From the NCBI GenBank assembly GCA_014730115.1, contig WJIU01000045.1, positions 14,085 to 78,084 of the forward strand: a stretch of 64,000 nucleotides of DNA. Reading direction: 5' to 3'. Of this stretch, positions 17,254 through 37,175 are shown piece by piece. The notes beneath the pieces were generated by a model, which saw only the letters and a program-made list of their open reading frames with translations, ran no database searches and was not told the DNA's origin. The position numbers and the translations under genes were made by a program. Positions within the stretch are counted from its first letter, which is position 1; every line of letters starts with the position of its first letter. This stretch comes from Candidatus Micrarchaeota archaeon. Lineage in GTDB: Archaea > Micrarchaeota > Micrarchaeia > Anstonellales > Bilamarchaeaceae.

Positions 17254-17489
17254 TGGGCCTGCGGAGATAAATCCAGCCATGACGAGTTTACCTCGGAGCT
17301 TTCCCAAGGTCTGCCCCTGGAAGGACTGTCAAAAGGCTTTTGAACTCCGGACCTACGGCTTTCCTAGGCCAGCCAGTCCGTAAGGACTGTGCTAGAACGT
17401 GTCATATAAGACCGTCGCTCTAACCATTTCAGGCCCTGCCTGATAAAATCTTGAACAAATCAGTTCAAGGCTGACTGAGCTACAGGCCC
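17254..17489 (-). tRNA. tRNA-Ile(UAU) interrupted by three introns (D-loop, 37/38, T-loop)
   Basis: Hand-folded from the reverse complement. Acceptor GGGCCTG/CAGGCCC plus A73. D-stem GCTC/GAGC. Anticodon stem ACGGT/GCCGT with loop CTTATA|A. Variable AGGTC. T-stem CGGAG/CTCCG with loop TTCAAA|T. Inserted blocks are about 46 nt (17427-17472), 44 nt (17361-17404) and 71 nt (17268-17338). Mature length is 75 nt. Junctions are uncertain by 1-2 nt. Confidence 0.75.
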
Positions 17490-17507
17490 ATCTGGGAAGA
17501 ATTACCG

Positions 17508-17523
17508 ATAAATGTTTTTTAAA
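17508..17523. promoter_or_regulatory. shared AT-rich TATA-like element between tRNA-Ile (minus) and folD (plus)
   Basis: ATAAATGTTTTTTAAA lies 19-34 nt from the tRNA 5' end and 24-39 nt from the folD ATG. Confidence 0.45.
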
Positions 17524-17546
17524 CCCTTACTCGACAACAAAAGTCC

Positions 17547-18374
17547 ATGTACAATGTTTTATCCGGCAAAGAGCCGGCCAACGCGGCTCTTGAAAAGGCG
17601 CAGAAAAAGGTTGCCGAAATGGAAAAAAAGCCGGGCCTTGCCATAGTCCTGGTCGGAAGCGACCCTGCTTCTGAGATTTATGTGAAAAAGAAGCTGGAAA
17701 AGGCAGAGAGGATTGGCATAAAGACCCGGCTGGAAAAGCTGGGTGCTGATGCCTCTGAAGAGCAGGTTCTGAAGCTTGTGGAGGAACTGAACAACGACAG
17801 GGAGGTGGATGGCTACATTGTACAGGCGCCGCTCCCCCCGCAGATAGACTATTCCAGGGTACTGCAGCGCATCTCTCCGGAAAAGGATGTGGATGGGTGG
17901 ACACCGGCAAGCATGGGAAAACTGGTCAGCGGGGTAAAATCCTTTCGTCCGGCTACCCCGCTGGGCGTTATCAGAATCCTGGAGCATTACGGGGTTGAAA
18001 CCCGGGGAAAGGACGCAACAGTCATAGGAAGGAGCAATGTGGTGGGCAAGCCCCTTGCCCTAATGCTTCTGGAGAAGAACGCAACGGTTACAGTATGCCA
18101 CTCCAGGACGCAAGACCTCTCCGAACACACCAGGAATGCTGACATCCTGATAGCTGCGGTCGGAAAACCGGGCCTGGTTACTGCAGATATGGTGAAGAAA
18201 GGGGCTTATGTAATAGACGTAGGCACCACAAGGGTTGAAGGAAAGCTGAAGGGGGATGTCGATTTTGAGAATGTGATAAAAAAAGCGCACTGCAGCCCTG
18301 TGCCCGGTGGAGTCGGACCGATGACAGTGGCAATGCTCATCAGCAACTTGGTGGATGCAGCACCCTCAGGATGA
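17547..18374 (+). CDS. folD: bifunctional methylenetetrahydrofolate dehydrogenase/cyclohydrolase
   Basis: GRSNVVGKPLALML and PVPGGVGPMT motifs. 275 aa. Confidence 0.9.
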   Translation: MYNVLSGKEPANAALEKAQKKVAEMEKKPGLAIVLVGSDPASEIYVKKKLEKAERIGIKTRLEKLGADASEEQVLKLVEELNNDREVDGYIVQAPLPPQIDYSRVLQRISPEKDVDGWTPASMGKLVSGVKSFRPATPLGVIRILEHYGVETRGKDATVIGRSNVVGKPLALMLLEKNATVTVCHSRTQDLSEHTRNADILIAAVGKPGLVTADMVKKGAYVIDVGTTRVEGKLKGDVDFENVIKKAHCSPVPGGVGPMTVAMLISNLVDAAPSG

Positions 18375-19130
18375 GCCCGGATACCGGCGGTTTATCTCTT
18401 CAGAATGTTTCAGGAGAATCTTGTGAACTCCTGAGCCGTACTGCATGGCCTTTTTCTTCCGTTTTACCGCAATGCTGGGGACATTAAGAATCTTTGCTGC
18501 TTCCCTGAGCATCCCCTTTTTCAGAAGCCGCTCTTCCATCCTGTCCTCAACCGGCACAGAGAACACCATGTCTGCGATATTCCTGTCATAAAGGGGGAAC
18601 CTTGCCTCAATGTTGAATTTCCGGCAGATTTTTTTTATCCAGGCAATTTCCCTTTTGCAGAGGGTCCTGAATTCCTCCTTCAGTATTGAATCCAGGTTTT
18701 TGCCTTCATCATGATACCTGTAGTAGCGGTCATAGCCAACAAAAAGCTCTTCTGCCCCTGCCCCGAACAACATCACGCTGTGGCCGCTTTCCGCAGCAGC
18801 CTCGGCAGTGCAGTAAACAGGAACCAGTATTTCCAGCTTGAGAAATTCCAGGGGAAGGAAAGAGTAGATTTCCTGGTAAGATGACAATGCCTTGTCCTTT
18901 TCCAGCAGGACCCTTCTCCAGGGAAGGCCAAGGGTCTCTGCAACCTTTTCCGCGTATTCCAGGTCCTGGCTTTTTTCACAGCCGCAGGAAAAAAGCTCCA
19001 CATCCGCATTTTTTCCTGCAACCGTGGCTATGGTTGTTGAGTCCAGGCCGCCGGAAAAAGAGACTGCAACCCGGTCTTCAAGGCTTTGTTCAACAGACTG
19101 CCTGATGAGTGAGGATAATTCCAGAATCAT
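18366..19130 (-). CDS. PP-loop ATP pyrophosphatase, asparagine synthase C-terminal-domain-like
   Basis: SFSGGLDST PP-loop. 254 aa with no glutaminase domain. Confidence 0.75.
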   Translation of the reverse strand: MILELSSLIRQSVEQSLEDRVAVSFSGGLDSTTIATVAGKNADVELFSCGCEKSQDLEYAEKVAETLGLPWRRVLLEKDKALSSYQEIYSFLPLEFLKLEILVPVYCTAEAAAESGHSVMLFGAGAEELFVGYDRYYRYHDEGKNLDSILKEEFRTLCKREIAWIKKICRKFNIEARFPLYDRNIADMVFSVPVEDRMEERLLKKGMLREAAKILNVPSIAVKRKKKAMQYGSGVHKILLKHSEEINRRYPGSS

Positions 19131-19198
19131 AGGATTGCTATTTCGGTAGAAAACAATTTAAAAACAAACTCAGCAAATTCGTTTCGCCAACTAATTTA

Positions 19199-19309
19199 GG
19201 GCCCGTAGCTCAGCTTGGATAGAGCGACGCTCTCCTATTGCGTCCCGGAGGACAGGCTCCGGAAACAGCGGACAGGCGAAGGTCAAGGGTTCAAATCCCT
19301 TCGGGCCCG
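19199..19309 (+). tRNA. tRNA-Arg(CCU) with a 36-nt intron at the canonical 37/38 position
   Basis: Acceptor GGGCCCG/CGGGCCC plus G73. D-arm GCTC-AGCTTGGATA-GAGC. Anticodon stem ACGCT/GGCGA (one A-A mismatch, one G-U) with loop CTCCTA|A. AGGTC. T-arm AAGGG-TTCAAAT-CCCTT. Intron 19238-19273 contains the hairpin CCGGAG..CTCCGG. Confidence 0.78.
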
Positions 19310-19720
19310 CTACTTTTTCTTTTTACTGGTTTTTTTCTTGGGCTTGACATCAATATGGACTTCGGGCACTTCCGGCCATTCCTTTTTCTGGAACTCTTCT
19401 TCCATAGAAGGCCTTTCATGCTTTTTCCAGTCGTGCCCCCCGTTTCCCCAGTTCTTGAAGAATCCTGCTATGAATCCAAGCATTGCTCCGATTGCCACCA
19501 GGTCCGGGGACTCTATCCCAAACACTGAAGCAAAGCCTGTCCTGACCACATCACCGAGCACAGGGGTATGTGCCACTATCCAGCCTGTTATCGCCCCAAT
19601 AAGGGCACCGAGCACTGCAAATAGGAATATTCCAATAATTCCGAGGAGAAGCACTACAATGCCAACGGCTACCCCTCCCACAATCGTTCCTGCAATTTTC
19701 TGGGGATTCATGAAAAACAC
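19310..19720 (-). CDS. small membrane protein with Lys-rich C-terminal tail
   Basis: Gly/Ile-rich TM segments (GTIVGGVAVGIVVLLLGIIGIFLFAVLGALIGAITGW). Ends KPKKKTSKKKK. Confidence 0.6.
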   Translation of the reverse strand: MFFMNPQKIAGTIVGGVAVGIVVLLLGIIGIFLFAVLGALIGAITGWIVAHTPVLGDVVRTGFASVFGIESPDLVAIGAMLGFIAGFFKNWGNGGHDWKKHERPSMEEEFQKKEWPEVPEVHIDVKPKKKTSKKKK

Positions 19721-19741
19721 AACCTGATGAAGTTTATAAGG

Positions 19742-20344
19742 CTACTGCATAATGCTGGAGAGAATCCGGTAGGCTGCCCCGGTATCAGCCTGCCGCACGA
19801 CCAAAAGCGTGTCAGTATAGCAAGAAATGAATTCAACCACATTAATCCCTTCGGATGCCAGGGACCCCAGGACATAGGATATTACCCCAGGCACTTCCTC
19901 CAGCTCTTCAGGGCTTTCTATGGTTATCAGATTCAGGTTTTCCTCTATCTTCCATATGGCTCTGCTTTTCGGTATTTTCTGCAGTTCCTTCTGCTCTATG
20001 ATATAGGTCATATGGCGGCCGGATTTGGCAAATGAGAGGGGCGTGAGCCCCTCCAGTTGCCCTGTTGAGATAACCACGGCCACCTTGCTCTTAATCAGCA
20101 TTGAACTGTTTTGCAGAAGCTCCAGAATCTTGCCTTCCAGGTCGGTTTCAATCCTTTCCATCTTCCTGGAAAGGCGTATCAGTGCCATCTTGACGGCGTT
20201 CTCATGCTCAAGATTCCCGAAAATCTCCAGGGAAATTTTTCTTGCAAGTGCAGAATAATTTACAATATTCTCGCGGAGCACTTCCTTGAGAAATGGCCTT
20301 TTCTTGACATAAAGCCAGACCATTTCCGAGATGTTTTGTTTCAT
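19742..20344 (-). CDS. ACT-domain regulatory protein (predicted amino-acid metabolism regulator)
   Basis: C-terminal ACT-like VPGVISYVLGSLASEGINVVEFISCYTDTLLVV and an N-terminal helical HTH-like part. Divergent from argG. Confidence 0.65.
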   Translation of the reverse strand: MKQNISEMVWLYVKKRPFLKEVLRENIVNYSALARKISLEIFGNLEHENAVKMALIRLSRKMERIETDLEGKILELLQNSSMLIKSKVAVVISTGQLEGLTPLSFAKSGRHMTYIIEQKELQKIPKSRAIWKIEENLNLITIESPEELEEVPGVISYVLGSLASEGINVVEFISCYTDTLLVVRQADTGAAYRILSSIMQ

Positions 20345-20436
20345 TTGCAACACTTGTGTAACAGAATGTAACATATCTCGCAAAACATTTATAAGCCTGA
20401 TTTGAAGCAGTAAATTCCAAACAAAGAGTGGTAATC

Positions 20437-21663
20437 ATGGAAAAAGTTGTATTGGCCTATTCAGGAGGGCTTGACACCTCCTGCATACTGAAATGGCTTG
20501 TGGAAAAGGGATATGATGTAATAGCATATATTGCGGACGTGGGCCAGAATGAGGATTTTCAGGCGGCAAAGGAAAAGGCCCTGGACATCGGCGCCTCAAA
20601 GGTATATATAGAGGACCTGAAAGGGGAGTTCGTAACGGATTTTATCTTCAAGGCAATTGAAGCCAACGCCATATACGAAAGCAGGTATCTGCTCGGAACC
20701 GCCCTGGCAAGGCCGCCTATTGCCAAAAGACAGATTGAAATTGCAGAAAAGGAAGGGGCAGGCTACGTAGCTCATGGGGCCACCGGAAAAGGTAATGACC
20801 AGGTGCGGTTTGAACTCACCTATTATGCGCTTAACCCTGGAATCAAAATAATATCACCGTGGAAGGACAAGGAATTTCTGGAACAGTTCAGTGGGCGTCC
20901 GGACCTTATCAATTATGCCAAAGAAAAGGGTATACCGGTGGATGCCACCCATGAGAAGCCATTCAGTACCGACGAAAATCTTATGCACATCAGCTATGAG
21001 TCAGGCATTCTTGAAAATCCTGCGGTCCAGCCAAACAGAGACATGTTCAAACTGACGGTTGACCCAAGGGATGCCCCTAACCGGGAAACTGAACTGGAAA
21101 TCCATTTCAGGGACGGGCTTCCGGTAAAGGTAGTCAACAAGGACGACGGAACAGAAAGGGAAGACCCCCTGGAGCTTTTTCAGTACCTGAATGAGCTTGG
21201 AGCCAAGAACGGCATCGGAAGAATAGACATCGTGGAGAACAGGTATGTGGGCATCAAGTCGCGGGGGGTTTACGAAACCCCCGGAGCCACCATTCTGCGG
21301 GAGGCCCATCTGGACATAGAATCAATAGCAATGGACAGGGAGGTCATGCGCCTGCGCGACATGCTTGCTCCCAAGTTTGCCGAGCTGGTATACTACGGCT
21401 TCTGGTTCAGCCCTGAGATGGAGTTTCTGACTGCCTCAATCGGCAAAAGCCAGGAGCTTATAGACGGGGTGGTGCATCTCTCCCTGTACAGGGGAAATGT
21501 AACGATAAAGGGGAGAGAATCGCCCAGCTCACTCTACAATAAAGAGCTTTCAAGCATGGACATTGAAGGCGGATTCAATCAGGAGGATTCGGAAGGCTTT
21601 ATAAAAATAAACGCGATTCGACTGATGGCCCACCGTGCAATCGTGGAAAAAAAGAGGCAGTAG
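20437..21663 (+). CDS. argG: argininosuccinate synthase
   Basis: AYSGGLDTS and [15 protein letters not shown]. Confidence 0.95.
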
Positions 21664-22995
21664 ATGCTCTGGGGAGGAAGGTTTTCTAAAAGTCCCGACA
21701 GGGACATACTGGAATACAACAGCGCTGAGAATACGCGGCTGGACCTGAGGCTGGTGCCTTATGATATTGCAGGCAGCATCGCCCATGTCATGATGCTGGA
21801 GAAACAGGGCATCCTCCGGAAAAAAGAATCGTCAGAGATAACCAGGGCGCTAAAGGGCCTTTTCAATAAATGGAAAACGTCGGGCCTTGGCCTGGACCCT
21901 GAAATTGAGGATGTGCACACTTACATAGAAAGGGCTGTGAGCAGGAAAACAGAACACGGCAAAAAGATGCATACCGCACGCTCCCGGAACGACCAGGTTC
22001 TTGCAGACATGAGAATGTATATGCGGGACATGGTGCTGGAACTCAACAAAAAGCTGTTTTCACTTCAGAAAAGTTTTGAATGCCTTTCCAAAAAAGACGG
22101 GCCGATGGCCGGTTATACCCACACCAGGGTGGCACAGCCGCTTACAGTCAGCTTCTGGTGCGACTCTTATGTCCAGGGCCTGAAAAGGGATGCGCAAAGG
22201 CTTGAGGACTGTTACAGGCGAATCAACAGCAATCCCCTGGGAGCCTGTGCCCTTGCCGGAACTCCGTGGGGCATTGACCGCAGACACACCGCCAGGCTGC
22301 TTGGCTTCAGCAATGTTCAGGAAAACGAGCTTGATGCCATCAGCTCGCGGGGAGAGGCCGAAGCCGAGCTCCTTTCCGCGCTTGGCATAACAATGGCAAG
22401 GCTTTCCGGACTTGCCGAGGAGCTTATCTGGCTGTCCCAGAAAAATCTTCTGGAGATTCCGGAGGAATACTGTACAGGAAGCAGCATCATGCCAAACAAA
22501 AAGAATCCCGATGCCCTGGAGCTGGTCCGGGGCCGCACCTCGCGCGTGCACAGCTGCCTGTTTCATGCCCTCTCTGTTAAAAAAGGGCTCATTCCCGGCT
22601 ACCATTCTGATTTGCAGGAAACCAAGCCTGCGGTAATGAGCGGCACGGAAACAACGCTGGCCAGCATCTCTGTAATGACGAAGATGGTAAAGAAACTGAA
22701 ATTCAACAAAAAGAATATTGAAAACGAGCTGGAGCAGGGCTTTGCCCGGGCGACAGAAATAGCTGATACACTTGCCATGCAGGGGATGCCCTTCAGGGAA
22801 GCGCATCGTAAAGCAGGGATGATAGTAAGGGAATGCGAAGAAAAGGGAATTGTACTTTCCCAGCACCCTGGGGCCAAAGAAATGGCATCCCCGGAAAGAA
22901 AACGGCTGAAAAGAACTGTCAAGGCTGAGAAGAACGGTTACCTGTCCTCAGAAGAAAAGAGGATAACGGAAGTTTACTCTAAACTTCTTCGTTGA
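21664..22995 (+). CDS. argH: argininosuccinate lyase
   Basis: GSSIMPNKKNPD fumarate-lyase signature. The ATG directly follows the argG stop. Confidence 0.95.
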   Translation: MLWGGRFSKSPDRDILEYNSAENTRLDLRLVPYDIAGSIAHVMMLEKQGILRKKESSEITRALKGLFNKWKTSGLGLDPEIEDVHTYIERAVSRKTEHGKKMHTARSRNDQVLADMRMYMRDMVLELNKKLFSLQKSFECLSKKDGPMAGYTHTRVAQPLTVSFWCDSYVQGLKRDAQRLEDCYRRINSNPLGACALAGTPWGIDRRHTARLLGFSNVQENELDAISSRGEAEAELLSALGITMARLSGLAEELIWLSQKNLLEIPEEYCTGSSIMPNKKNPDALELVRGRTSRVHSCLFHALSVKKGLIPGYHSDLQETKPAVMSGTETTLASISVMTKMVKKLKFNKKNIENELEQGFARATEIADTLAMQGMPFREAHRKAGMIVRECEEKGIVLSQHPGAKEMASPERKRLKRTVKAEKNGYLSSEEKRITEVYSKLLR

Positions 22996-23626
22996 TGCTT
23001 TTTTTGAACAGCATGAAGAGTACCCCCACTGAAGCCATTCCCAGAAGCAGTATGGCCCATGAAAGGTTTCCGAGCACAGACTGGTGGGATGCAGGAGCTG
23101 CCACCGGAATATCCTCGCCGGTTACAACATCATTTTCCTCCACCACTGGCGGGGCATATTCCTCAGGCTCTGGCTGCGGCTCAGCTGTTTCTTCCTCCTC
23201 TGCAGCATATTCAGGAATCTGTTCTGTCTGGTTCTCCTGTTCGGCCTCCTCCTGAACTTCTTCCTGCCCGGGGAATTCCCGGGGGGGTGTTTCACCGCAT
23301 ACAGATTCCTGCGGACAGAAGTTGGGGATCATCATCTGAAGGCACTGGGCTCCCATTTCAGGGGGAGCAACATCGGGACAGTGCACCAAGCTTCCGTCCG
23401 GCCTGTAGAATGTGCTTCCTTCGCCGGACACAGCAGAATCAGCCCTTACCACATTTCCATTGCAGATGTATACGGCAGACACGTTTTCTTCCTGGCACAA
23501 TGCCTGGGAGGTGTCTTCTGCGAACTGCAGTCCGTTGTCGCCGGATTCAATCACAGCGGCACAGCTGACAGAAAATGCAAGCAATATCGCAAGAAAGACA
23601 CTAAAAGGCCCAATTCTCATGTACAC
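22979..23626 (-). CDS. secreted acidic protein with C-terminal TM anchor
   Basis: Signal-like FSVFLAILLAFSVSCAA, a Cys-containing domain, a Glu/Pro-rich linker, and the TM WAILLLGMASVGVLFMLF. Confidence 0.6.
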   Translation of the reverse strand: MYMRIGPFSVFLAILLAFSVSCAAVIESGDNGLQFAEDTSQALCQEENVSAVYICNGNVVRADSAVSGEGSTFYRPDGSLVHCPDVAPPEMGAQCLQMMIPNFCPQESVCGETPPREFPGQEEVQEEAEQENQTEQIPEYAAEEEETAEPQPEPEEYAPPVVEENDVVTGEDIPVAAPASHQSVLGNLSWAILLLGMASVGVLFMLFKKSINEEV

Positions 23627-23677
23627 ACCTATACAAATTATGAAACAAATAGATTATAAAGGTTAGCCTGAAACCCT

Positions 23678-24853
23678 TCAGGGCTGAACCCATTCGATTT
23701 CATAGTATTCATATTCGCTCCCGGGAAGTTCAATGGCCTTTATCACATAATAGGTGACGCTGCTCTCCCTGTCACTGATGCCTACAACCATTTCCAGTCC
23801 GAAGTGCTCGCATTCCGCGAGGGCTTTTGCCAGCTCCTCTCCGCCAATATATTCATCCTCGGTAAGGGAGTACATAAAATACCTGGGGGTTCCGTCTTTG
23901 GGAGTCTCTACCCCCCCCTTTTTCCGGTGATAGAGCAGAAAATCAAGGCGGGGGTTTTCAGAATCCACCTTTATCTTGGTTTTTTTGCCCGGGATTGCCA
24001 GGATAAATGTCTTTCTCACACTGTGGGCAACCCTTATGGCCCTTGCCCATTCTGAAATCAGCTGCTTGTGCTTGCGGGGAAACACATGGATTACGTGCTT
24101 GGAATGCATCCAGTCGGTGTTAGTACGCACCGGTGATGCTCCCGGGAAATAAAGCCGGAAATGGGTCCCGAATTTGAATCCGGTCTTCATCACATACCCC
24201 CTTTTTCTCCAGTCTTCATACACTGAATAGATGTCGTCAAAGAACTTTATCCTGCCCCTGGCAGTTTTCTGGATATCGGCAAGCTTTTTGTTGCGAAGTT
24301 GCAGACCGCCATGGCGCAGAAGAAAGATTGTCTCAAAGATGTCAAGCTTGGATATGTTTCCCCTGTGGGCAGCCTTGTAGGTTCCGAACTGGCCCATCCA
24401 GTATTTCTGATAAAGGTCCTTTCCGGTAGGGACATCATCGACAACTGTAAGCAGGTCATCCGCGAAAAACAGCCCGTCGAAAGAATAGGCATCCATCCTG
24501 AAATCAGAGCTTTCGTATTTGATTAGCACTGTTTTCCCATAATTGCCCTCCGCCTTTGCGGCGGCGCATATCATCAGGCCCTTGTCCCTCCAGTCCTTGT
24601 ACGTCAGATAGCGCGCAAGCAGCTTCTCGGCCTTCAGGAACAATGCTGCAATATCGTTGAAGGTATAGAGATTGCCCGCCTCATCGTAGCACCTGCCGTT
24701 CCTGATATCCATGATGTAAAGCGCTTCAACAGGTGAAAGATAGATTATCCCCTTTTTCATCTCTCCAAAAAATCCGTTTTGCAGGGACGAAACGTCTGGA
24801 GGCTCTTTTGCCGTTATCTGTCTGGTTTTCCGGTTCAGCTCAAGTTTTATCAT
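23678..24853 (-). CDS. endA: tRNA-splicing endonuclease, long single-chain multi-unit form
   Basis: 391 aa from MIKLELNRK. The catalytic unit reads YEDWRKRGYVMKTGFKFGTHFRLY .. HSKHVIHV .. SVRK (Tyr/His/Lys). A degenerate upstream unit reads YLTYKDWRDKGLMI. An extra C-terminal unit reads YFMYSL..FGLEMVVGISD. Confidence 0.85.
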   Translation of the reverse strand: MIKLELNRKTRQITAKEPPDVSSLQNGFFGEMKKGIIYLSPVEALYIMDIRNGRCYDEAGNLYTFNDIAALFLKAEKLLARYLTYKDWRDKGLMICAAAKAEGNYGKTVLIKYESSDFRMDAYSFDGLFFADDLLTVVDDVPTGKDLYQKYWMGQFGTYKAAHRGNISKLDIFETIFLLRHGGLQLRNKKLADIQKTARGRIKFFDDIYSVYEDWRKRGYVMKTGFKFGTHFRLYFPGASPVRTNTDWMHSKHVIHVFPRKHKQLISEWARAIRVAHSVRKTFILAIPGKKTKIKVDSENPRLDFLLYHRKKGGVETPKDGTPRYFMYSLTEDEYIGGEELAKALAECEHFGLEMVVGISDRESSVTYYVIKAIELPGSEYEYYEIEWVQP

Positions 24854-24930
24854 AAATACACCTCGAGCGGAAATTCCGAACACTGTAGAAATTCCGTAAA
24901 TGTATATTGAATGAAACCATCTAAATCCTT

Positions 24931-25569
24931 TCACCCAAAGAACCGGAGAATTCTGCTGTCCCTGAAGTCCCTTATTTCCAAGTCGCACTCCGGCCTTTCC
25001 AGCGATTCATGGGGCCTTACCCACACAAGCTTCATTCCGGCCTTTCTTGCAGCCTCGCATCCTGCATAGGAATCCTCGATTACCAGGCAGCCCCCCGGTT
25101 TCACCCCCAGGCTTTCCGCTGCAATCAGGAAAGGGCCGGGGTCGGGCTTCCTGGCACTGCTGTCATCGGCGCTGATAATGAAATCAAAGCTTTCCTCCAG
25201 GCCCAGCATATCAAGCAGCTCCGTTATGTAGCTGCGGTGCCCTCCTGAAACCACTGCGGTCTTCACCCCGCGGGACTCAAGAAAGGAAAGAAAGTCCTTC
25301 AGCCCGGGAGTCTCCTTCAGCTTGTTGCTTTTCACCTTTTCCATGAAGAGTTTTCTTCTTTTCTCCACAAGCTCATTCACGTCTGCATCAATATCGTATT
25401 CTTCCAACAGTGCACGGAATATCCTTCCTGAGCCTGTCCCGGCAAACTCGTAGTACCAGCGGTCCCTGATTTCCACCTGCTGGGGAAGCAGCTCCAGGAA
25501 AGATTCCTTGTGCAGCTCCTCGGTCTGCACAACAACACCGTCAAAATCAAAAAGCACAGCCTGAACCAT
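24931..25569 (-). CDS. HAD-superfamily phosphatase (beta-phosphoglucomutase-like)
   Basis: FDFDGVVV (motif I), VVSGG, and K...EDSYAG (motifs III/IV). Confidence 0.85.
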   Translation of the reverse strand: MVQAVLFDFDGVVVQTEELHKESFLELLPQQVEIRDRWYYEFAGTGSGRIFRALLEEYDIDADVNELVEKRRKLFMEKVKSNKLKETPGLKDFLSFLESRGVKTAVVSGGHRSYITELLDMLGLEESFDFIISADDSSARKPDPGPFLIAAESLGVKPGGCLVIEDSYAGCEAARKAGMKLVWVRPHESLERPECDLEIRDFRDSRILRFFG

Positions 25570-25622
25570 CAGACGGTTATCATAAAGCAACTTTTATATA
25601 ATGAACCTCCAAAAAACCATCC

Positions 25623-26351: not shown

Positions 26352-26355
26352 TTTT

Positions 26356-26988: not shown

Positions 26989-26993
26989 AAGAA

Positions 26994-27251: not shown

Positions 27252-27323
27252 TAAACCACCTTGAATATCTTCAGTAAGTGAGGATTTGCAGTTTAGGTTT
27301 ATAAAGATTCCTACCTCGGAGAA

Positions 27324-28760: not shown

Positions 28761-29001
28761 TCAGTGATTCCAGGGCACTGATTATTGCCCAGACCTGGGT
28801 CCGGGCATGAGACGGCATATTAATGTCTTCAGTAATAGACTCTATGATGTAGATTGCAGCACTTATTTTCACACTGTCCTCGTCCTCTCCATCAAGGCGC
28901 TCTTTCGCCTCTGCAAGAGCCCGCCTGATGTTTTTTGGAATAGTGGTATCATCAAGCAAATCACCGACCATGGCGCTGATTTCCGGTATCTTCATGCTCA
29001 T
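28738..29001 (-). CDS. UPF0147-family small protein
   Basis: LLDDTTIPKNIRRALAEAKERL ... MPSHARTQVWAIISALE matches the conserved archaeal UPF0147 pattern. Confidence 0.75.
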   Translation of the reverse strand: MSMKIPEISAMVGDLLDDTTIPKNIRRALAEAKERLDGEDEDSVKISAAIYIIESITEDINMPSHARTQVWAIISALESLNEQGQND

Positions 29002-29080
29002 AATATCACCTGGACCTCTGATTCTTGAGAATTGGGTAGGTTAAATCTAATGGAAAAGAAATTTAAAGGAGTATTTTCAT

Positions 29081-29199
29081 CGGGCCCGGGGGGATTTGAA
29101 CCCCCGACCCTCAGCTTAGAAGGCTGCTGCGCTATCCATTGCAGGAGCATCCGGCTGCCAACAGGTCAAGCCAAAAGGCTCAGGCTGCGCCACGGGCCC
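29081..29199 (-). tRNA. tRNA-Arg(UCU) with a 44-nt intron in the D-loop
   Basis: Acceptor GGGCCCG/CGGGCCC plus G73. D-stem GCGC/GCGC encloses 54 nt (AGCCTG|AGCCTTTTGG...CTGCAATG|GATA). Intact anticodon arm GCAGC-CTTCTAA-GCTGA. T-arm GGGGG-TTCAAAT-CCCCC. Intron is about 29137-29180. Confidence 0.8.
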
Positions 29200-29205
29200 G
29201 AAAAG

Positions 29206-29222
29206 TTGATATCTGATATCAA
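29206..29222. repeat. perfect 8+1+8 palindrome TTGATATC-T-GATATCAA just upstream of tRNA-Arg(UCU)
   Basis: Read directly. Lies 7-23 nt upstream of the tRNA 5' end, so it may overlap the promoter. Confidence 0.6.
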
Positions 29223-29260
29223 AGGAAAAGTTTAAGGGAGGATGGGAAATGCGGGGAAAA

Positions 29261-29341
29261 TTAGAACTCTTCGTCTTCTTCTTCCTCTCCCCACTCCTCA
29301 TCTTCGAAATCGTCTTCTTCCCAGTCTTCTTCTTCGCTCAT
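29261..29341 (-). CDS. candidate micro-ORF encoding a 26-aa poly-acidic peptide
   Basis: Hand translation gives MSEEEDWEEDDFEDEEWGEEEEDEEF*. An in-frame upstream ATG at 29356 adds MRSFR. ATTATATATT box lies about 15-25 nt upstream of 29356. Too short for the ORF track. Confidence 0.3.
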   Translation of the reverse strand: MSEEEDWEEDDFEDEEWGEEEEDEEF

Positions 29342-29467
29342 TCTGAAGGATCTCATTGCTTACACCCAATATATAATTCAGGTGGTTTTAACTGAGAAAG
29401 CCTTTTAAAAGTTTGTTGAAGTGTTTTTCGTTGTAAATTCATTTGTTTGGCCCGGAAGAAGAAGTTT

Positions 29468-29954
29468 TATGAAACTGCTGAGGATAAGCTGGAATGCTGT
29501 AACGAAATACTGCGAGGAGCTTGCTGAAAAAACCAGTCCTTTCCGGCCGGACATGATAATCGGCATCTCCAGGGGAGGCATTGTCCCCGCAAGGATTCTG
29601 AGCGACGTGCTTGGAATAAAAAAACTGGGCATAATCGGGGTTGCGTTCTACCGGAAAGCAGGGAAAAAGGGGATGGAGCCTGAAATAACCCAGCACCTTG
29701 ATATGGAAATTGCAGGAAAAAGAGTTCTGCTGGTGGATGATGTTTCCGATACCGGAAACAGCCTTGTATTTGTAAAAAGACGCCTGGAAAAGAAGCGCCC
29801 CAAGGAGGTAAAAACCGCCACCCTTCACTATAAGCCCCATTCAGTGCTCAAGCCTGATTATTTCATCGGCACCACTGAGGCATGGATTGTTTATCCCTGG
29901 GAAAGGCATGAAGTGGAAAGAGAGCTGAAAGAACAGCCTATCCTGCAAAATTGA
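29468..29954 (+). CDS. purine phosphoribosyltransferase (hypoxanthine/xanthine-guanine type)
   Basis: PRPP-binding loop VLLVDDVSDTGNS. 161 aa from MKLLRISW. Confidence 0.85.
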
Positions 29955-30391
29955 ATGTCTCTGCGGAACCCGCCGGCAGGGTAAAAACAAGGCAGCCTCC
30001 ATCCTTTGTTGTAAATTTTACCTGGGAAGGTGCAGGGTGCTGGCTTCTATTGGAGGATACACTTGTACTGTCCAGTATTTCCGACTTAAGAATGCGCTCG
30101 AATTCCCTGAAACTGATATTGCGCCTGCGTCCTTCACTCGTTACCAGTGAAGCATATCATTATCCTGGCTCCTTTCCAGCACAGCCAGCGTGCAGGTGCA
30201 AGCAGACCCCGAATGTTTCCTGCTCTATTTTGGCAGCAGGAGACTCAGACAGGGGGCCTGCCCACATAATCGTCACATCCGCCCTTCCTTAGATAAAATC
30301 CGGGAGAATCGGCAGCTTTCCCTTTTTGTTTGGGCATTCTGCCCGCAAATCAGCTGTCTTTCTTTGGTCTTCCCCATTTCCCATAAATGAA

Positions 30392-32272
30392 TCACCTCAG
30401 CCTGACTGCCTCCAGGTTTGCAATGGCCCTGGATTCTTTCCGGAGCATGCTGCCCCCGGAGCGGGCAAAGTCTTCGGTCTTGCCCCAGTCGCCGTGCATG
30501 GTAAGGATGCGCTCCGGAGAGGGCCGGAGGTTCTTAAGGAATGCCATAAGCTGGGCACGGTCGCTGTGGCCGGAGAATCCCTCGGCAGTCTCAATCCGCA
30601 TATTAATGTTGAGGGATTTGGTTCTTCCGTCATCTCCAACGACAGGAACCTCCTTCACTCCTTTCTGAATCTTGTTTCCAAGGGAAAGTGCGCTCTGGTA
30701 GCCGCAGAAGATAAGGGTATTCTTCTCATCATTTGCCATCATCTTAAGATATTCATAGGACGGGCCTCCGGTAAGCATGCCGGACGGGGCCAGGATTACG
30801 CATGGCTCTTCATTCACGATGTCCTCTTTGGAGGTGCCCTTTGCAACCTTTATGAGAGGAGATTCAAACGGGCTCCGGTCGGAAAGAATCCTGCGGTGCA
30901 GCTGTTCTCTAAGATATTCAGGATAAGCAGTGTGGATTGCTGATGCTTCCATGACCATGCCGTCAATGTAGATTGAAGCATTGAAATCCGGGTCCCTTCT
31001 TGCATACTCTTCAATTACCAGCATGATTTCCTGGGACCTCCCAACTGCGAATACGGGGATAAGGACTTTTCCTTTCTTTGCCAGCGTCTCCCTGATTATC
31101 CTCATCAGCCTTTTTTCGCTTTCAAAGCGGTTGATGGTCATATCCTTTCTTCCGCCATATGTACTCTCAACAAAAAGTGTTTCCAGTCTTGGAAAACGGG
31201 TGTTGGCCGGGTCGAACAGTCTTGTAAAACCAAACTTGAAGTCTCCGGAATAAACAAGATTGTGGGCCCCTTCGCCTACATGCAGGTGCACGCTGGCGCT
31301 GCCCAGTATGTGGCCGGCGTTGTACAGCGTCATCTTTATTTCCGGAGTTATGTCCACTACTTCCTCGTAGTCAACCGTGATTATGTTTCTGAGTTCGGTC
31401 TGGATATCCTTCTTTTTGTAGGGGGCGTCTATATTGAAGACCTTGTTGCAGAGGTTCAGGTAGTCCTGCTGAAGAAGCACCATGAGGTCTCTTGTCGGAG
31501 GAGTGCAGTAAACTGGGCCGTCGTATCCATAGGCAAAAAGATAGGGAACAAAGCCCATGTGGTCCATGTGGCCGTGGCTGACGACAACGGCATCCAGGTT
31601 TTTCAGCGAAAACCCTGCCATGTTCAGATAGGGATATGCCTTGGTGGGGTCGGATGTGGCGGTATTTACGCCGCAGTCAATCAGGACCTTGCTGTTGGGC
31701 GTCTGCACCAGAAGGCAGGAACGCCCGATTTCCTTGAATCCGCCCAGTGCCATTACCCTAATCCAGTCGCTCTGGGGGGGCTCCTGGCATATCTTTTTGC
31801 CTATGCCGACCAGGAATTTCTTGCGGGCAGCGGCCTCGGCAACCTGGCTTTTCCTGATGCCGTCCAGAGTGGATGAGGGCATGGTGGGGGCCCGCAGGGT
31901 GACCGGGGACCAGTTGGTCCTCAGCATGATTTCCTTGAGAATGGAGCCGCCTTTTCCGATAACCAGACCGGGCTTTATCGCCTCAATTCGCACTTCGCAC
32001 ATCTCCGGGACAAATGATATGGACTTGATTTCGGCCTCTTCAGGAACAAGATTCTCGATTTCCTTTTTGGCCTTGTCTATATCCATGAGCTCGGTGGGGT
32101 CGACCCGGATGGTGACCTTTTTCTTTAATGCACCTGCAAGCTCCTTTATCAGCCTGTCGTTGGAATAGAATGCCTTTATGTCCTTGATGTAAATCACTGT
32201 AGAAAGGCCTTCCGGCTCCACATTGGTAACAACGCATTCTTTTGGCATAATTTCATTTATTTTCTTGACCAT
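30392..32272 (-). CDS. aCPSF1: KH-domain beta-CASP metallo-beta-lactamase RNase
   Basis: N-terminal KH-like region, VVSHGHMDH motif, and a beta-CASP C-terminal part ending GHSD..MHGD. Confidence 0.9.
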   Translation of the reverse strand: MVKKINEIMPKECVVTNVEPEGLSTVIYIKDIKAFYSNDRLIKELAGALKKKVTIRVDPTELMDIDKAKKEIENLVPEEAEIKSISFVPEMCEVRIEAIKPGLVIGKGGSILKEIMLRTNWSPVTLRAPTMPSSTLDGIRKSQVAEAAARKKFLVGIGKKICQEPPQSDWIRVMALGGFKEIGRSCLLVQTPNSKVLIDCGVNTATSDPTKAYPYLNMAGFSLKNLDAVVVSHGHMDHMGFVPYLFAYGYDGPVYCTPPTRDLMVLLQQDYLNLCNKVFNIDAPYKKKDIQTELRNIITVDYEEVVDITPEIKMTLYNAGHILGSASVHLHVGEGAHNLVYSGDFKFGFTRLFDPANTRFPRLETLFVESTYGGRKDMTINRFESEKRLMRIIRETLAKKGKVLIPVFAVGRSQEIMLVIEEYARRDPDFNASIYIDGMVMEASAIHTAYPEYLREQLHRRILSDRSPFESPLIKVAKGTSKEDIVNEEPCVILAPSGMLTGGPSYEYLKMMANDEKNTLIFCGYQSALSLGNKIQKGVKEVPVVGDDGRTKSLNINMRIETAEGFSGHSDRAQLMAFLKNLRPSPERILTMHGDWGKTEDFARSGGSMLRKESRAIANLEAVRLR

Positions 32273-32345
32273 TTCCTTAAATTGCAAAATAACACCTCTG
32301 TTGAACGTGTAGAAAAAACGATGCTTAAAAGAAAAACAAAACGAA

Positions 32346-32981
32346 TTACTGGTTCAGAAGTTTCTTAACTTCATTTTTTTCCATTCTGTTGAATCCTGAT
32401 TCTGTTAGAGTCACAAGGTCAACCCTTTCACCGCTTGCCGCGTCTCTCTTCATCGCGGCGCTTACCGCCTTTGCAGCAACCGGAAGGTTGTTTGACACTT
32501 CCAGGGACTCTTTGTACAATTCCTCAAGCACACCGAAAGCAATTGGCGAGCCGCTGCCGGTAGCAGTGAACTTTTCTTCCGTCACCCCTCCAAGCATGTC
32601 AACAGAGAAGAGCCTGGGCCCCCCGTCAACACCGCCAACCAGCAGTTGTACAAAGAACGGGAAAAACTTATGCTGGGAAAGGATGTTTGCAAGCAGGGAT
32701 GCTGCAGCTTCTACCGTAGGGGGCTTTTCGTTCTTCAGCTCATACAGCTTGAGTTCTGCAGTCATCCAGCGGACCAGGGTCTGTGCATCACCGACGCTTC
32801 CTGCGATAGTCATCGCAATGCGCTCATGAATCGGGTATATCTTGTCTATGTCCTTGCTTGCGATAAGATACCCCATAGTTGCACGCCTGTCGCTGGCCAT
32901 TACAACACCGTCCTTGCAGACAACACCTACCGTAGTGGTTCCGGTTTGTCTTGCTTCTTGCATAGATTTAGAATTATCCAT
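32346..32981 (-). CDS. psmB: proteasome beta subunit
   Basis: Propeptide, then TGTTTVGVVCKDGVVMASDRRAT. Confidence 0.9.
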   Translation of the reverse strand: MDNSKSMQEARQTGTTTVGVVCKDGVVMASDRRATMGYLIASKDIDKIYPIHERIAMTIAGSVGDAQTLVRWMTAELKLYELKNEKPPTVEAAASLLANILSQHKFFPFFVQLLVGGVDGGPRLFSVDMLGGVTEEKFTATGSGSPIAFGVLEELYKESLEVSNNLPVAAKAVSAAMKRDAASGERVDLVTLTESGFNRMEKNEVKKLLNQ

Positions 32982-33064
32982 GTTTATCACTTGGGAGAAC
33001 AAGTTCTATTTTATACTTCAACCTAATGTTTTTAAACCTCCCTTCAAAGCATGATTCGTCTTGA

Positions 33065-33346
33065 CTACTGGAATGCATAAAGATATGCTTCAGCAGCCTG
33101 CCTTGTCTCGGGACATCTTGTCTCTTCAGCAACTTTTTTCAAAGCGCTTTTGTTGCCTCCAAGCTCCTGAACTGCGGCCTTCCGCTCTTCAAGCCTTGGA
33201 GAAGCAAGTGCAGTCTGGAGGCAGCGACTGTCCAGCTGCTCCAGCATTTCCCTTCCGCCCTGGGAAAACGGATTGATTGTTTTTCTTGAAGCAGAAGTGC
33301 CTGTTTCCTTGGTAGAACGCAAAGTCTTCCTTTTTGCACCCATCAT
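33065..33346 (-). CDS. small hypothetical protein (HEAT-like helical)
   Basis: 93-aa ORF. Basic N-terminus, then RLEERKAAVQELGG / ETRQAAEAYL helices. Confidence 0.4.
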   Translation of the reverse strand: MMGAKRKTLRSTKETGTSASRKTINPFSQGGREMLEQLDSRCLQTALASPRLEERKAAVQELGGNKSALKKVAEETRCPETRQAAEAYLYAFQ

Positions 33347-33440
33347 AGGATTACCTGTTTGATTTAATAGATTTTTGTGCTGTTGATATTAGGGGCGTAA
33401 ATATTTATAAATGTTCCTATTTTTCCACTTTCTATAACTT

Positions 33441-36089
33441 CTATTCCTCCTTTATGAAGTAATGCTCAATTCGGAGGGCAATGCCCACCAGGACCAGGTA
33501 GACAATCTGTGCTGCACCTATCATCAGCCAGTCCTGCAGTGCAAGGGGCTCTATCAGGAACAGTGAATTCAGCGGGGTGTATATCACAACCACCTGCAGC
33601 GCAAGCGATGTAAAAACTGCAAGGTGCAGCCACCCGTTAGAGAAAAGATTGGTTTTGTATCTCCAGCGGACCAGGTATACGGTAAGCATCTCCAGGACAA
33701 CAAAACCGGCGAACAGCATTGTGTAGCCTTTTATCTGGCCTATGGAAAGAGACCATGCATAAAGCGAGATTATTGCAATTGCCGCACTTACGCCCAGAGA
33801 CACAAGGAAATACATGGTATCCTTGTCAATCATGCGCTCGCTTTTTTCCCGGGGCTTTCTTTCCATGATATTTTTGGCAGGGGCGTCCACCCCCAGGGCC
33901 AGTGCCGGAAGCCCGTCAGTAAGAAGGTTAATCCAGAGCAGCTGTATCGGAATCTTTGGTGAAATTCCCAGGGATGTTACAGTGGCAAGGAAAACCACCA
34001 GCACTTCTGATATGTTCGCTCCAAGAAGATAAGTCACAAACTTCCTGATGTTGTCGAAGGTCCCCCGGCCTTCAGCAACTGCATTTCTGATTGAAATGAA
34101 ATTGTCGTCCAGTATTATGATGTCGCTGGCCTGCTTGGTCACTTCGGTGCCCCTTACACCCATTGCAATTCCTACATCGGAATTCTTTATGGCGGCAGCG
34201 TCATTGACACCGTCCCCGGTCATGCACACCGCATGGCCGCTGTTCTTGAGAGTCTTCAGAATCATCACTTTGTGATGCGGGCTGGTGCGTGCATAGATAT
34301 CGCTGTTTTCAATTACCTCGGAAAGCTTTTCTTCCGGGAGGCGGTCCAGCTCATCCCCGGTCACAGCTTCGCCGGGAAAGCCCAGTTCGCTTCCAATTGC
34401 TTCTGCGGTGTATTTATTGTCGCCGGTTATCATTATGACCCGTATGCCGGCATTCCTGCAGTCCTCCACTGCCTGCTTCACTCCCTCCCTCGGCGGGTCA
34501 ATCATCCCCATGAGCCCAAGGAATACGAGATTCTCCTCATCATACTCCCTTTTGCCGTTCTCCTTGTAGGCGAGGCCTATTACCCTGAATGCTTCAGAAG
34601 CCATCTCCTTGTTCTTTTCCTCAATTTCCTTTCTCTCCACGGATGTGAGTTTCTTGGGCTTGCCATCATCCAGTATCCGGTTGCACCTGGAAACCACAAC
34701 CTCGGGAGCCCCTTTCACAAATACAAAATTGTTTTCCTCCCCCTTGTTGAGGGTAGACATCATCTTCCGGTCCGAGGAAAACGGATTCTCGTTGAGCCTT
34801 TTCATTTTCCCCCGGATTTTTTCAACGTCATAGCCTGCCTTGTAGGCAGGAAGCAGAAGCGCAACCTCGGTGGGGTCGCCCTTGAATCTTTTTCCCTTCT
34901 CCTCTTCTATCTCATGGGCATCGTTGCAGAGAACTGCAGCCTTAAGCAGAAGCTCCAGCCTTGCAGGACATTTGCCTTTTTCGCAGACAATTTCCCCGTT
35001 TTTCTCAAGGCCCTTTCCCCCTACTGACATATACTTTCCTTCAAAATAGATTTTCCTGACTGTCATTGTGTTCTCAGTCAGGGTACCTGTCTTGTCCGTG
35101 CATATGACATCCACAGAGCCAAGGTCCTGGATAGTGGAGAGGCGCCTCATAAGCGCGTTCTGCTCCAGCATGCGGTTGGTAGCCATGGAAAGGGCCAGCG
35201 TAACCACTGCGGGAAGGCCCTCAGGTATGGCGGCCACGCCCAGGGCAACCGCGGCCAGGAAAATGAAAATCAAGTCTCCGCTTCCAAGAATTATGTTCGT
35301 TGCCGCGATGACTATCAGAATTCCCAGGGTAATTACCGAAATCTTCTTTCCGACGTCCTCAATTTCAAACTGGAACCGGGTCTTTTTCTGAGGTGCTTCT
35401 GAAATCTCTTTTGCTATCTTTCCTACTTCTGTATTCAGGGCAGTTTCAACTGCAACCGCCTTGCCATGGCCTCTGGTAACCACAGTATTCATGAACACCA
35501 TATTGCTGCGCTCTGCCAGGGGGATGTCCTTTTCAAGAACACCGGGCCGCTTCTCCGCAGGAAAGCTCTCTCCTGTAAGCGCGGATTCGTCAACCTGCAG
35601 GGAAAACGATTCAATCAGCTTCGCATCGGCAGGCACCTTGTCCCCCTCATCCAGAAGAATGATGTCTCCCGGAACCACCTTTTCGGAGTTTATTTCCTTT
35701 TCCTTTCCGTTTCTCAGGACAGTTGCCATGGGGGCGCTCATCTTGGTGAGCTCCTCAATTGTTTTTTCGGCCTTGTACTCCTGAACAAAGCCGAATATTG
35801 CGTTGGCTATTACGATTCCGAAAATCAGGTATGCATCTATTGCCTCCGCCTCCCCCGGTTCAAAATAGCTGAGAGCCAGGGAGATGGTCGCGGCAATAAT
35901 CAGGATGATTACAAGAAGATTCTTGAACTGGTTGACAAAGATTGTCAGGGGGGACACTCCTTTTTCCACTGTAATCTTGTTGGGCCCGTACTCCTCCAGA
36001 CGCTTTTCTGCCGCCTCTTCGGAAAGGCCCTTGGGACTGCTTTCAAGTTTTTTTATGACTTTCTCCGAAGAGAGGGTGTGCCAGCCCAT
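33441..36089 (-). CDS. P-type cation-transporting ATPase (type II, Ca2+/cation pump-like)
   Basis: TGES, CTDKTGTLT, TGDN, GDGVNDAAA and about 10 TM segments. Confidence 0.9.
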   Translation of the reverse strand: MGWHTLSSEKVIKKLESSPKGLSEEAAEKRLEEYGPNKITVEKGVSPLTIFVNQFKNLLVIILIIAATISLALSYFEPGEAEAIDAYLIFGIVIANAIFGFVQEYKAEKTIEELTKMSAPMATVLRNGKEKEINSEKVVPGDIILLDEGDKVPADAKLIESFSLQVDESALTGESFPAEKRPGVLEKDIPLAERSNMVFMNTVVTRGHGKAVAVETALNTEVGKIAKEISEAPQKKTRFQFEIEDVGKKISVITLGILIVIAATNIILGSGDLIFIFLAAVALGVAAIPEGLPAVVTLALSMATNRMLEQNALMRRLSTIQDLGSVDVICTDKTGTLTENTMTVRKIYFEGKYMSVGGKGLEKNGEIVCEKGKCPARLELLLKAAVLCNDAHEIEEEKGKRFKGDPTEVALLLPAYKAGYDVEKIRGKMKRLNENPFSSDRKMMSTLNKGEENNFVFVKGAPEVVVSRCNRILDDGKPKKLTSVERKEIEEKNKEMASEAFRVIGLAYKENGKREYDEENLVFLGLMGMIDPPREGVKQAVEDCRNAGIRVIMITGDNKYTAEAIGSELGFPGEAVTGDELDRLPEEKLSEVIENSDIYARTSPHHKVMILKTLKNSGHAVCMTGDGVNDAAAIKNSDVGIAMGVRGTEVTKQASDIIILDDNFISIRNAVAEGRGTFDNIRKFVTYLLGANISEVLVVFLATVTSLGISPKIPIQLLWINLLTDGLPALALGVDAPAKNIMERKPREKSERMIDKDTMYFLVSLGVSAAIAIISLYAWSLSIGQIKGYTMLFAGFVVLEMLTVYLVRWRYKTNLFSNGWLHLAVFTSLALQVVVIYTPLNSLFLIEPLALQDWLMIGAAQIVYLVLVGIALRIEHYFIKEE

Positions 36090-36129
36090 TAGCAACCACA
36101 GTACGCCTGAAGATTAAAAAGGTTTGGAC

Positions 36130-37011
36130 TCAGCCCTGATAGGGCTGAACATCCACCAGTGTTACCTCAAATTTCAGGGTTTCATTCGCAAGATGATGGT
36201 TGGCGTCAAGAGTAATGTTCTGCTCGCTCTTGTTGACTACCCGGAAGGAAGTCGGAGCGCCGGTTTCAGGGTGGGGAAGCACATAGCTCGAATTAATCTC
36301 CAGCATGTATTCAATTGTTGCATTCAGATCGTGTAGCGTTGAGACCTGCTGGGGTATGCCGTTGAAGGTAAAGTTTGCGCCGGGGGTCAGTATGTAGAAT
36401 AAAGTCACATTCTCCCCGTCAATGCTGTCGATGAATACCGTTCCGTAGTCGGTGGGATAGCCGTCCCCGACCGATATGTTGATTCCCTGCTCCTCAAGGA
36501 AGGAGGCTGGGACAGTCTCATACAGGCTCTTGTTGTAGTACCGGGGAACCACCATCACCTTGGAGGGGTCGTAAGGTCCATAGCCCCTCTCCGGGTCCAC
36601 GTTAAACATAACCGTTTCGTTTACTTTCATGCCAATTACATTGATTATGAATCCCTTGATGATTCCCTGGTTGAAGACAACATCAAACATAAGGGGCTCG
36701 TAGGTGCGGTAGGGGTTATAGGTGCCTGCTTTCCGGGCAAGGGTCTCATTGCTGGTGTCAATGACCTCCTCATCTACCCAAAGAGTGTAATTCACCCAGA
36801 CAGTATCCCCCAAATCCACTGTATAATCAGGGGGGATTTCCATTTCGGTTTCATTTTCTTCTCCCGTGCCTGTATCGTTTTGGGAAGTGAAATTGTCGAC
36901 AGGCTCAATTTCAGGAAGTCCGTCTTCAGTTTCATTTTCCTGCATCTGTCCTTCATCCACGCATCCGAAAATAGCCAAACCTATCAGCAAAACTGCAATA
37001 ATCCGCTTCAT
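36130..37011 (-). CDS. secreted FKBP-type peptidyl-prolyl isomerase-like lipoprotein
   Basis: Lipobox-like LAIFGC. FKBP-like VWVNYTLWVDEEVIDTS..PLMFDVVFNQGIIKGF. Confidence 0.7.
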   Translation of the reverse strand: MKRIIAVLLIGLAIFGCVDEGQMQENETEDGLPEIEPVDNFTSQNDTGTGEENETEMEIPPDYTVDLGDTVWVNYTLWVDEEVIDTSNETLARKAGTYNPYRTYEPLMFDVVFNQGIIKGFIINVIGMKVNETVMFNVDPERGYGPYDPSKVMVVPRYYNKSLYETVPASFLEEQGINISVGDGYPTDYGTVFIDSIDGENVTLFYILTPGANFTFNGIPQQVSTLHDLNATIEYMLEINSSYVLPHPETGAPTSFRVVNKSEQNITLDANHHLANETLKFEVTLVDVQPYQG

Positions 37012-37034
37012 ACGTATCACATCGGGGAAAATGA

Positions 37035-37175
37035 TGGGGTCATGGAGATTGGCGGCCCTGCCGGCATCGGCCTTTCAGGCTTTCGAACTCCAATATGCAG
37101 GTTTCTACGGCCAAATGTGTCCACAAAAGGACGGGATCTGGAGCCTGCCGTACTACCTGGTTATACTATGACCCC
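37035..37175 (-). tRNA. tRNA-Trp(CCA) with two introns (anticodon loop and T-loop)
   Basis: Acceptor GGGGTCA/TGACCCC plus A73. D-arm GTAT-AACCAGGTA-GTAC. Anticodon stem GCAGG/CCTGC enclosing CTCCAG|35 nt|A. T-stem TGGAG/CTCCA enclosing TTCGAA|33 nt|T. Introns are about 37103-37137 and 37049-37081. Mature length is 73 nt. Confidence 0.75.

Follow-up and report, generated by a model that had tools for sequence, protein, structure and literature searches.

Why should introns outside the canonical position of three tRNA genes open with nearly the same five bases? The question is raised by a stretch of 64,000 nucleotides (nt) of a Candidatus Micrarchaeota archaeon (assembly GCA_014730115.1, contig WJIU01000045.1, positions 14,085 to 78,084 of the forward strand), referred to here as the window, whose own numbering is used for coordinates throughout. 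The genome to which it belongs comprises 1.15 Mb in 46 contigs, is 83% complete and has a G+C content of 51%. The initial annotation had placed the word AGCCT at the start of four introns, those in the D-loop and the T-loop of tRNA-Ile(UAU) (Ile-D and Ile-T), in the D-loop of tRNA-Arg(UCU) (Arg-D) and in the T-loop of tRNA-Trp(CCA) (Trp-T), and had proposed a single mobile or duplicating intron family. Our analysis indicates that AGCCT probably recurs mainly because the non-canonical introns of the window descend from at least two multi-copy families, denoted F3 and F4, superimposed on the anatomy of the splice junction. The conserved 5' ends of both families begin with (A)GCCU.

The introns were located with a purpose-written finder that excises candidate bulge-helix-bulge (BHB) introns and scores the remaining cloverleaf, with U8, A14 and U33 as hard rules and, in the genome-wide pass, one intron per structural element. 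Three genes carry the introns in question, all on the minus strand. The tRNA-Ile(UAU) gene (17254-17489, 236 nt) contains three introns, and splicing at the BHB junctions yields a cloverleaf of 75 nt with a score of 32; the gene was missed by both ARAGORN and Rfam in a search of the window. The tRNA-Arg(UCU) gene (29081-29199) contains one D-loop intron, and the tRNA-Trp(CCA) gene (37035-37175) a canonical and a T-loop intron. Removal of the introns from the three genes restores canonical cloverleaves of 73-76 nt, with scores of 31-32 of 32.

Ile-D occupies 17427-17472 (46 nt, position 17/17a), Ile-T 17269-17339 (71 nt, position 58/59), Arg-D 29139-29182 (44 nt, position 17/17a) and Trp-T 37049-37081 (33 nt, position 59/60). 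All the words quoted in the initial annotation are present on the minus strand: AGCCTTGAAC at 17463-17472 in Ile-D, AGCCTTTTG at 17330-17338 in Ile-T and again at 29172-29180 in Arg-D, AGCCTGAAAGG at 37071-37081 in Trp-T, and GGCAGGGCC at 17432-17440 and 37054-37062, where it ends 5 nt short of the 3' splice site of Ile-D and Trp-T. At the predicted junctions AGCCT forms nucleotides 1-5 of Ile-D and Trp-T, as had been described; Ile-T starts 1 nt earlier (AAGCC) and Arg-D 2 nt earlier (TGAGCC), so that the prefix lies within 2 nt of the start in all four introns but opens only two of them. The three canonical introns of the window begin with TGACA, ATCCC and TTGCG and, as stated in the annotation, do not carry it.

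The BHB motif consists of a 4-bp helix flanked by two bulges of 3 nt each, and cleavage leaves the first two bases of the 5' bulge with the exon. The third base of this bulge is thus where the intron begins, and the bases that follow open the intron-internal helix h'. Whether AGCCT is part of the BHB helix or reaches beyond it can be answered on this basis: the prefix lies inside the splice motif, with A as the third base of the 5' bulge and GCC(U) as the 5' strand of h'. The partner of GCC is GGC, contained in (CA)GGGC or GGCU 6-7 nt ahead of the 3' splice site; next come 4 nt complementary to the exon, and then the final two bulge bases, usually AA. All four introns have BHB geometry in its full or relaxed (HBh'/hBH) form. 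The numbers of pairs in the central helix, h' and the outer helix h are 4/6/1 for Ile-D, 4/4/3 for Ile-T, 4/4/1 for Arg-D, whose junction is set by a perfect 4-bp central helix (GCAG/CTGC), and 2/4/5 for Trp-T, a relaxed motif. Minimum free energy folds pair AGCC with GGCU in Ile-T, GCCU with GGGC in Trp-T and GAGC with GCUC in Arg-D; the fold of Ile-D favours the conserved inner hairpin and leaves GCC/GGC as a short h'. From this geometry we infer that the transcripts would be spliced at the four predicted junctions. Part of the common prefix is a structural requirement, namely a bulged A and G-C pairs that open h'. Genome-wide, 18 of 26 non-canonical introns begin with A, versus 4 of 21 canonical ones, and in the structure of the ARMAN-2 splicing endonuclease (EndA) with RNA the residues R275 and W384 stack on the adenine with which the intron starts (PMC12397907).

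AGCCT alone is a frequent word, with 213 matches in the window. A census of the genome yielded 42 tRNA genes with 47 introns, 21 at position 37/38 and 26 non-canonical. AGCC lies 0-2 nt from the 5' splice site in 9 of the 26 non-canonical introns, where 0.38 are expected from its genome frequency (binomial 7e-11), and in 1 of the 21 canonical introns (Fisher 0.015). Its presence at the 5' splice sites of non-canonical introns is not due to chance. An all-versus-all local alignment of the introns of the genome revealed 22 pairs at Z≥5, compared with 0.18 expected in dinucleotide shuffles. Likeness among the introns is thus well above shuffled expectation, and the suggestion that they include related, duplicating copies held up in this genome and its lineage and for Ile-D (see below), but not in the sense that the four form one detectable family. 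When the four were aligned pairwise against 5000 dinucleotide shuffles, with p-values that are post hoc, the two pairs to which the initial annotation had drawn attention were nominally significant, Ile-D/Trp-T (p 0.006, alike at the ends only) and Ile-T/Arg-D (p 0.037); the remaining four of the six pairs were at chance (p>0.4). A blastn-short search with the seven introns of the window against their own genome gave significant matches to self only, and hence no close copies. BLAST of the 47 introns against 98 tRNA loci of relatives gave no match with E<0.01 for Ile-D, Ile-T or Trp-T, and a 17-nt exact match of Arg-D near the Trp loci of two relatives.

The evidence that Ile-D is a copy of a widespread element is clear. 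F3 introns are ~44 nt long and are composed of AGCCUUG, a hairpin, GAUUU, CAAGGC, a 4-nt exon guide and AA. A covariance model (R1) built from 10 introns of 9 other genomes only, one of them from tRNA-Lys(CUU), matches Ile-D from its first to its last base with 42.2 bits (E 3.6e-11). In the underlying alignment of 10 copies the termini and the hairpin stems are invariant, as are the CCTTG, CAAG, TTT and GG columns. R1 also matches the D-loop intron of tRNA-Ser(CGA) (23.5 bits), and Ile-D aligns with the three Ser D-loop introns of its own genome at Z of 7.2, 6.8 and 3.6. Ser D-loop introns of relatives share the architecture of Ile-D, with a compensatory change in the hairpin. Searched as a pattern, the core of the hairpin was present in 13 of 99 family genomes, and its reversed control gave no match; R1 matches occur in 49 of the 99 genomes, covering 13 of 23 genera, with 1-12 copies each and ~145 in total. 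Ile-D is a full member of F3, and the sole statistically secure family member among the four.

Read from the flanks of the copies, the hosts of F3 include tRNAs for Ser, Thr (three anticodons), Val, His, Arg (three), Lys (two) and Ala, and together with Ile the family inhabits at least eight tRNA identities, at D-loop positions 15/16 and 17/17a and at T-loop position 59/60. The bodies of these tRNAs are unrelated, and whole-gene duplication therefore does not explain the copies. The guide, that is, the four bases ahead of the final AA, differs between copies and complements the local exon, as in the guide/exon pairs CTGA with TCAG, CTGC with GCAG and ACAC with GTGT. Presence and absence at the same site differ among close relatives for the Ile D-loop, the Trp T-loop and the Ser D-loop. 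The Ser D-loop site is empty in 16 of 26 relatives, and among 18 readable Ile(UAU) genes of genus relatives none contains an F3 copy, 15 having no D-loop intron and 3 unrelated ones. Ile-D thus appears to have been gained recently in this lineage. The F3 copy closest to it resides in the tRNA-Arg(CCU) gene of a relative (G012), adjoining the Ile(UAU) gene of that genome. The sequences directly show which introns belong to the family, how many copies exist, which tRNAs host them and which relatives have or lack them; any route by which the copies move is an inference, considered further below. The last six bases of Ile-D are also found in an unrelated intron at the same site of two relatives; this identity was not counted as homology because pairing with the exon forces those bases. 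In many F3 copies (alignment A2; 17427-17445 in the window) the exon 4-mer paired by the guide is, in addition, duplicated inside the intron just upstream of CAAGGC, for example TCAG ... CTGA, with the consequence that the guide can pair within the intron rather than with the exon.

F4 introns are longer, ~80 nt, start with RGCCUUUUUGRC and close with AAAAGGC. The family was recognized in an alignment of ~80-nt introns at position 58/59 of the Ile and Trp T-loops of several relatives together with an Arg(UCU) D-loop intron of one relative. A covariance model of five F4 copies of relatives (R2) matches three introns of the genome under study, in the Glu(CUC) D-loop (56.6 bits), the Cys T-loop (23.2) and the canonical position of Leu(CAA) (17.5). 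It aligns over its full length to the exact bounds of Ile-T with 15.2 bits, at an E of 0.35 over the whole window. When local-alignment scores against the F4 members were summed, p was 0.03 for Ile-T and 0.02 for Arg-D. F4 introns occupy the same Ile(UAU) site in relatives, and Ile-T is probably a diverged F4 copy. The family of Arg-D is uncertain. It most resembles an F4 copy, within the first ~20 nt (p 0.05), and the corresponding site of relatives is occupied by different introns, one F4-like and one F3; the F4-like 5' end suggests that Arg-D may be an F4 copy, possibly a decayed one.

Trp-T, which contains GGCAGGGCC and has F3-like ends, is possibly a decayed copy of F3. Its site is empty in 10 of 18 relatives, the closest relative and nine others. 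In the relative G031 (L022:1614-1660), an F3-like 5' half is followed by a stretch resembling the 3' end of tRNA-Trp; this half-element is inverted and lies 19 nt upstream of the intron-poor tRNA-Trp gene of that genome, the closest relative, where the T-loop intron is absent. It was considered as kin of Trp-T and set aside, the likeness being marginal (p 0.06 under strict and 0.018 under soft treatment).

Several results weigh against descent from two families as the main cause of the common prefix. Of the four introns, Ile-D alone belongs to a family with statistical security. A search by nhmmer with F3 and F4 profiles reported none of the four, not even Ile-D; we consider nhmmer insufficiently sensitive for this purpose, given the 42 bits that Ile-D later attained with the covariance model. 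The R2 score of Ile-T is not significant window-wide and becomes so only upon post hoc restriction to known introns. Neither Arg-D nor Trp-T matches R1 or R2, and a 28-nt pattern of Trp-T allowing up to 3 mismatches found no copy in 98 family genomes. The junctions are predictions from BHB geometry by a home-made finder, and several could slide by 1-2 nt. Finally, AGCC also opens the D-loop introns of tRNA-Met and tRNA-Thr(UGU), which we could place in no family, so that a purely structural preference contributes.

Such a preference might by itself be the whole cause. If non-canonical introns lacking an outer helix need a stackable A as first base and strong G-C pairs at h', AGCC would arise repeatedly without shared ancestry. 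The excess of A at the first position, the stacking of this adenine by the enzyme and the two AGCC introns outside the families are in keeping with structural convergence, as are the introns at the same sites in relatives, which open with AGCGCG, AGGCC or AGGTT. The outer helix of D-loop introns, moreover, comprises just 0-1 bp, so h' must carry the motif. Convergence leaves unexplained the full-length match of Ile-D to R1 and the common interior hairpin and spacer sequence of ~145 F3 copies. Other G+C-rich openings work in this genome (GGGC, CCGCC, GGCTTC and GAGC), which shows that GCC is not required, and we regard convergence as the whole explanation as unlikely. An origin of AGCC as a copy of the D-loop consensus or as a target-site duplication was rejected because T-loop introns start in the same manner.

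At the other extreme, the single family proposed in the initial annotation, with AGCCT as its hallmark, would account for the position of the word within 2 nt of all four 5' splice sites. The terminal helices of F3 and F4 are also analogous (GCC-UU-G with C-AA-GGC and GCC-UUUUU-G with C-AAAA-GGC), and the two could belong to one superfamily. Against this stand the four of six pairwise comparisons at chance and the behaviour of the models, none of which matches more than one of the four introns: R1 matches Ile-D and misses Trp-T, Ile-T and Arg-D, and R2 matches Ile-T alone, and weakly. Against F4 members, the score of Ile-D is lower than the mean of the shuffles. That all four are copies of one family is thus very improbable. 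A narrower alternative concerns Ile-D alone, which could have reached its site through ectopic gene conversion between tRNA genes whose D-arms are near-identical, instead of by intron-specific transposition. The F3 hosts at 17/17a, Ile(UAU), Arg(CCU), Arg(UCG), Lys(UUU) and Lys(CUU), share the flanks GTAGCTCAG-YT and TGG-N-TAGAGCG; the most similar copy, in Arg(CCU) of G012, is 2.3 kb from the Ile(UAU) gene of that genome, and the same two genes are 1.7 kb apart in the window. F3 also occurs at 15/16 in Ser, Thr, Val and His tRNAs, which have different D-arms, and in T-loops, and flank homology cannot supply those sites. Conversion is a rather unlikely explanation.

Descent from F3 and F4 in combination with junction anatomy remains the explanation that we favour, and it is compatible with the splicing machinery encoded nearby. 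The broad-specificity endonuclease noted in the initial annotation was recovered: a three-unit, epsilon2-type EndA is encoded at 23678-24988 on the minus strand (PF01974, 77.8 bits) and aligns over its full length with PDB entry 4FZ2 (E 1.1e-132), the epsilon2 EndA of ARMAN-2, an enzyme that cuts relaxed motifs in vitro (PMC3239211). By analogy, the enzyme of the window is likely to be able to cut relaxed motifs. In the proposed scheme, h' and the 4-bp guide helix would present both bulges to the EndA dimer, the epsilon2 enzyme would cut the relaxed motif and a ligase would rejoin the exons. F3, and perhaps F4, may even be a self-contained mobile cassette in which the terminal inverted repeat (GCCUUG/CAAGGC) doubles as h' and the 4-nt guide is reset at each site, a proposal that we advance tentatively and hold to be possible rather than probable. 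Were it correct, any tRNA loop with four pairable exon bases would be a spliceable landing site, and the lineage would offer a tractable system in which to study tRNA intron gain in archaea and to distinguish reverse splicing from insertion at the DNA level. A second EndA-like match to PF01974, in a short frame of 170 aa, is located outside the window (G000, the genome under study, C33:7549-7791).

The phenomenon is intron transposition of the type known from Thermoproteales, for which transposed tRNA introns were described by Fujishima et al. (2010, Mol Biol Evol 27:2233), as summarised in PMC4090602 and PMC3239211; our literature search found no published description of it for the present lineage. 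According to these summaries, the introns of both cases have BHB or relaxed BHB junctions, and both hosts possess an endonuclease of broad specificity. They differ in that the Thermoproteales are crenarchaeotes with an (alpha-beta)2 enzyme, whereas the genome described here is of the DPANN/Micrarchaeota type and has an epsilon2 enzyme. Unlike the Thermoproteales introns as summarised there, F3 is a short, structurally defined unit of 44 nt whose termini are conserved and whose 4-nt exon guide varies, and it can be traced over 13 genera with one covariance model. A second case for comparison is Ca. Micrarchaeum acidiphilum ARMAN-2, which, as far as the consulted portions of PMC3239211, PMC3488258 and PMC12397907 describe it, has the same enzyme type, relaxed motifs, a canonical intron in tRNA-Ile(UAU) and numerous tRNAs with interruptions in the D-loop, anticodon stem and T-loop. 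Those portions give intron positions and the enzyme, and we found no intron families described in them; transposition is raised in the pertinent part of PMC3239211 merely as a possibility carried over from Thermoproteales. Asgard archaea (bioRxiv 10.64898/2026.10.13.758758) likewise have many non-canonical introns, mostly in the D-arm and missed by standard annotators, with gains on terminal branches and at BHB-compatible sites. Copying across tRNA types is almost absent there (1.5% of introns in cross-type families), in contrast to the obvious cross-type families found here.

For the arrival of archaeal tRNA introns at new positions, Thermoproteales are the only clear case of copying between tRNAs, and the Asgard study identified no general route by which introns are gained (10.64898/2026.10.13.758758). 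One model recovers ~145 F3 copies spread over 49 genomes; sites are filled in some close relatives and empty in others, and a 4-nt segment changes in step with the host exon. Such a family turns a vague 'transposition' into specific tests of donor-recipient pairs, guide resetting and enzyme requirements. There is also a bearing on annotation. The intron-aware finder identified five tRNA genes in the window and the standard tools ARAGORN and Rfam two of the five; standard finders overlook most intron-bearing genes of this kind.

The two tRNA genes of the window not yet mentioned are that for tRNA-Arg(CCU) on the plus strand (19199-19309), detected by Rfam (51 bits) and our finder and containing a canonical intron only (19238-19273), and that for tRNA-Ser(GCU), found without an intron by our finder. 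The canonical 37/38 intron of the Ile gene (17361-17404, 44 nt, minus strand) has no AGCCT and is kept across the genus. BLAST matches of 82-93% identity span its exon-intron-exon block in most genus relatives, and conservation of the intron on a par with the flanking exons hints at a role beyond being spliced out. The canonical intron of the Trp gene (37103-37137, 35 nt, minus strand) has an ortholog with 83% identity in the closest relative. In the census of this 83%-complete genome no gene was found for the anticodons Ile-GAU, Thr-GGU, Leu-UAG and Pro-GGG.

Outside the window, a recurrent module of ~30 nt was observed, consisting of a U-run/A-run hairpin and a CAAAAC tail. Introns in tRNAs for Asn, Glu, Lys, Thr and Arg contain it, both at the canonical position and in the D-loop (G000 C7:62860-62887, C30:9212-9239, C32:2678-2698, C36:9876-9903 and C44:4723-4749), and it occurs in both orientations, with 93-100% identity to copies that other species carry in other tRNAs. 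The hairpin module was also seen inside an apparent insertion in the 23S rRNA gene (G000 C12:~1845-1880) and, in two copies, in an intergenic spacer (C30:46020-46085). Two near-identical tRNA-Arg(CCG) genes with a 117-nt intron are located on separate contigs (G000 C21:3013-3203 and C25:21443-21633) and represent either a real duplication or assembly redundancy. A tRNA-Met(CAU) gene (G000 C44:12118-12295) harbours a canonical intron of 60 nt with words resembling C and D boxes (GATGA twice, and CTGA near the 3' end), which makes this intron a possible candidate for a C/D guide RNA.

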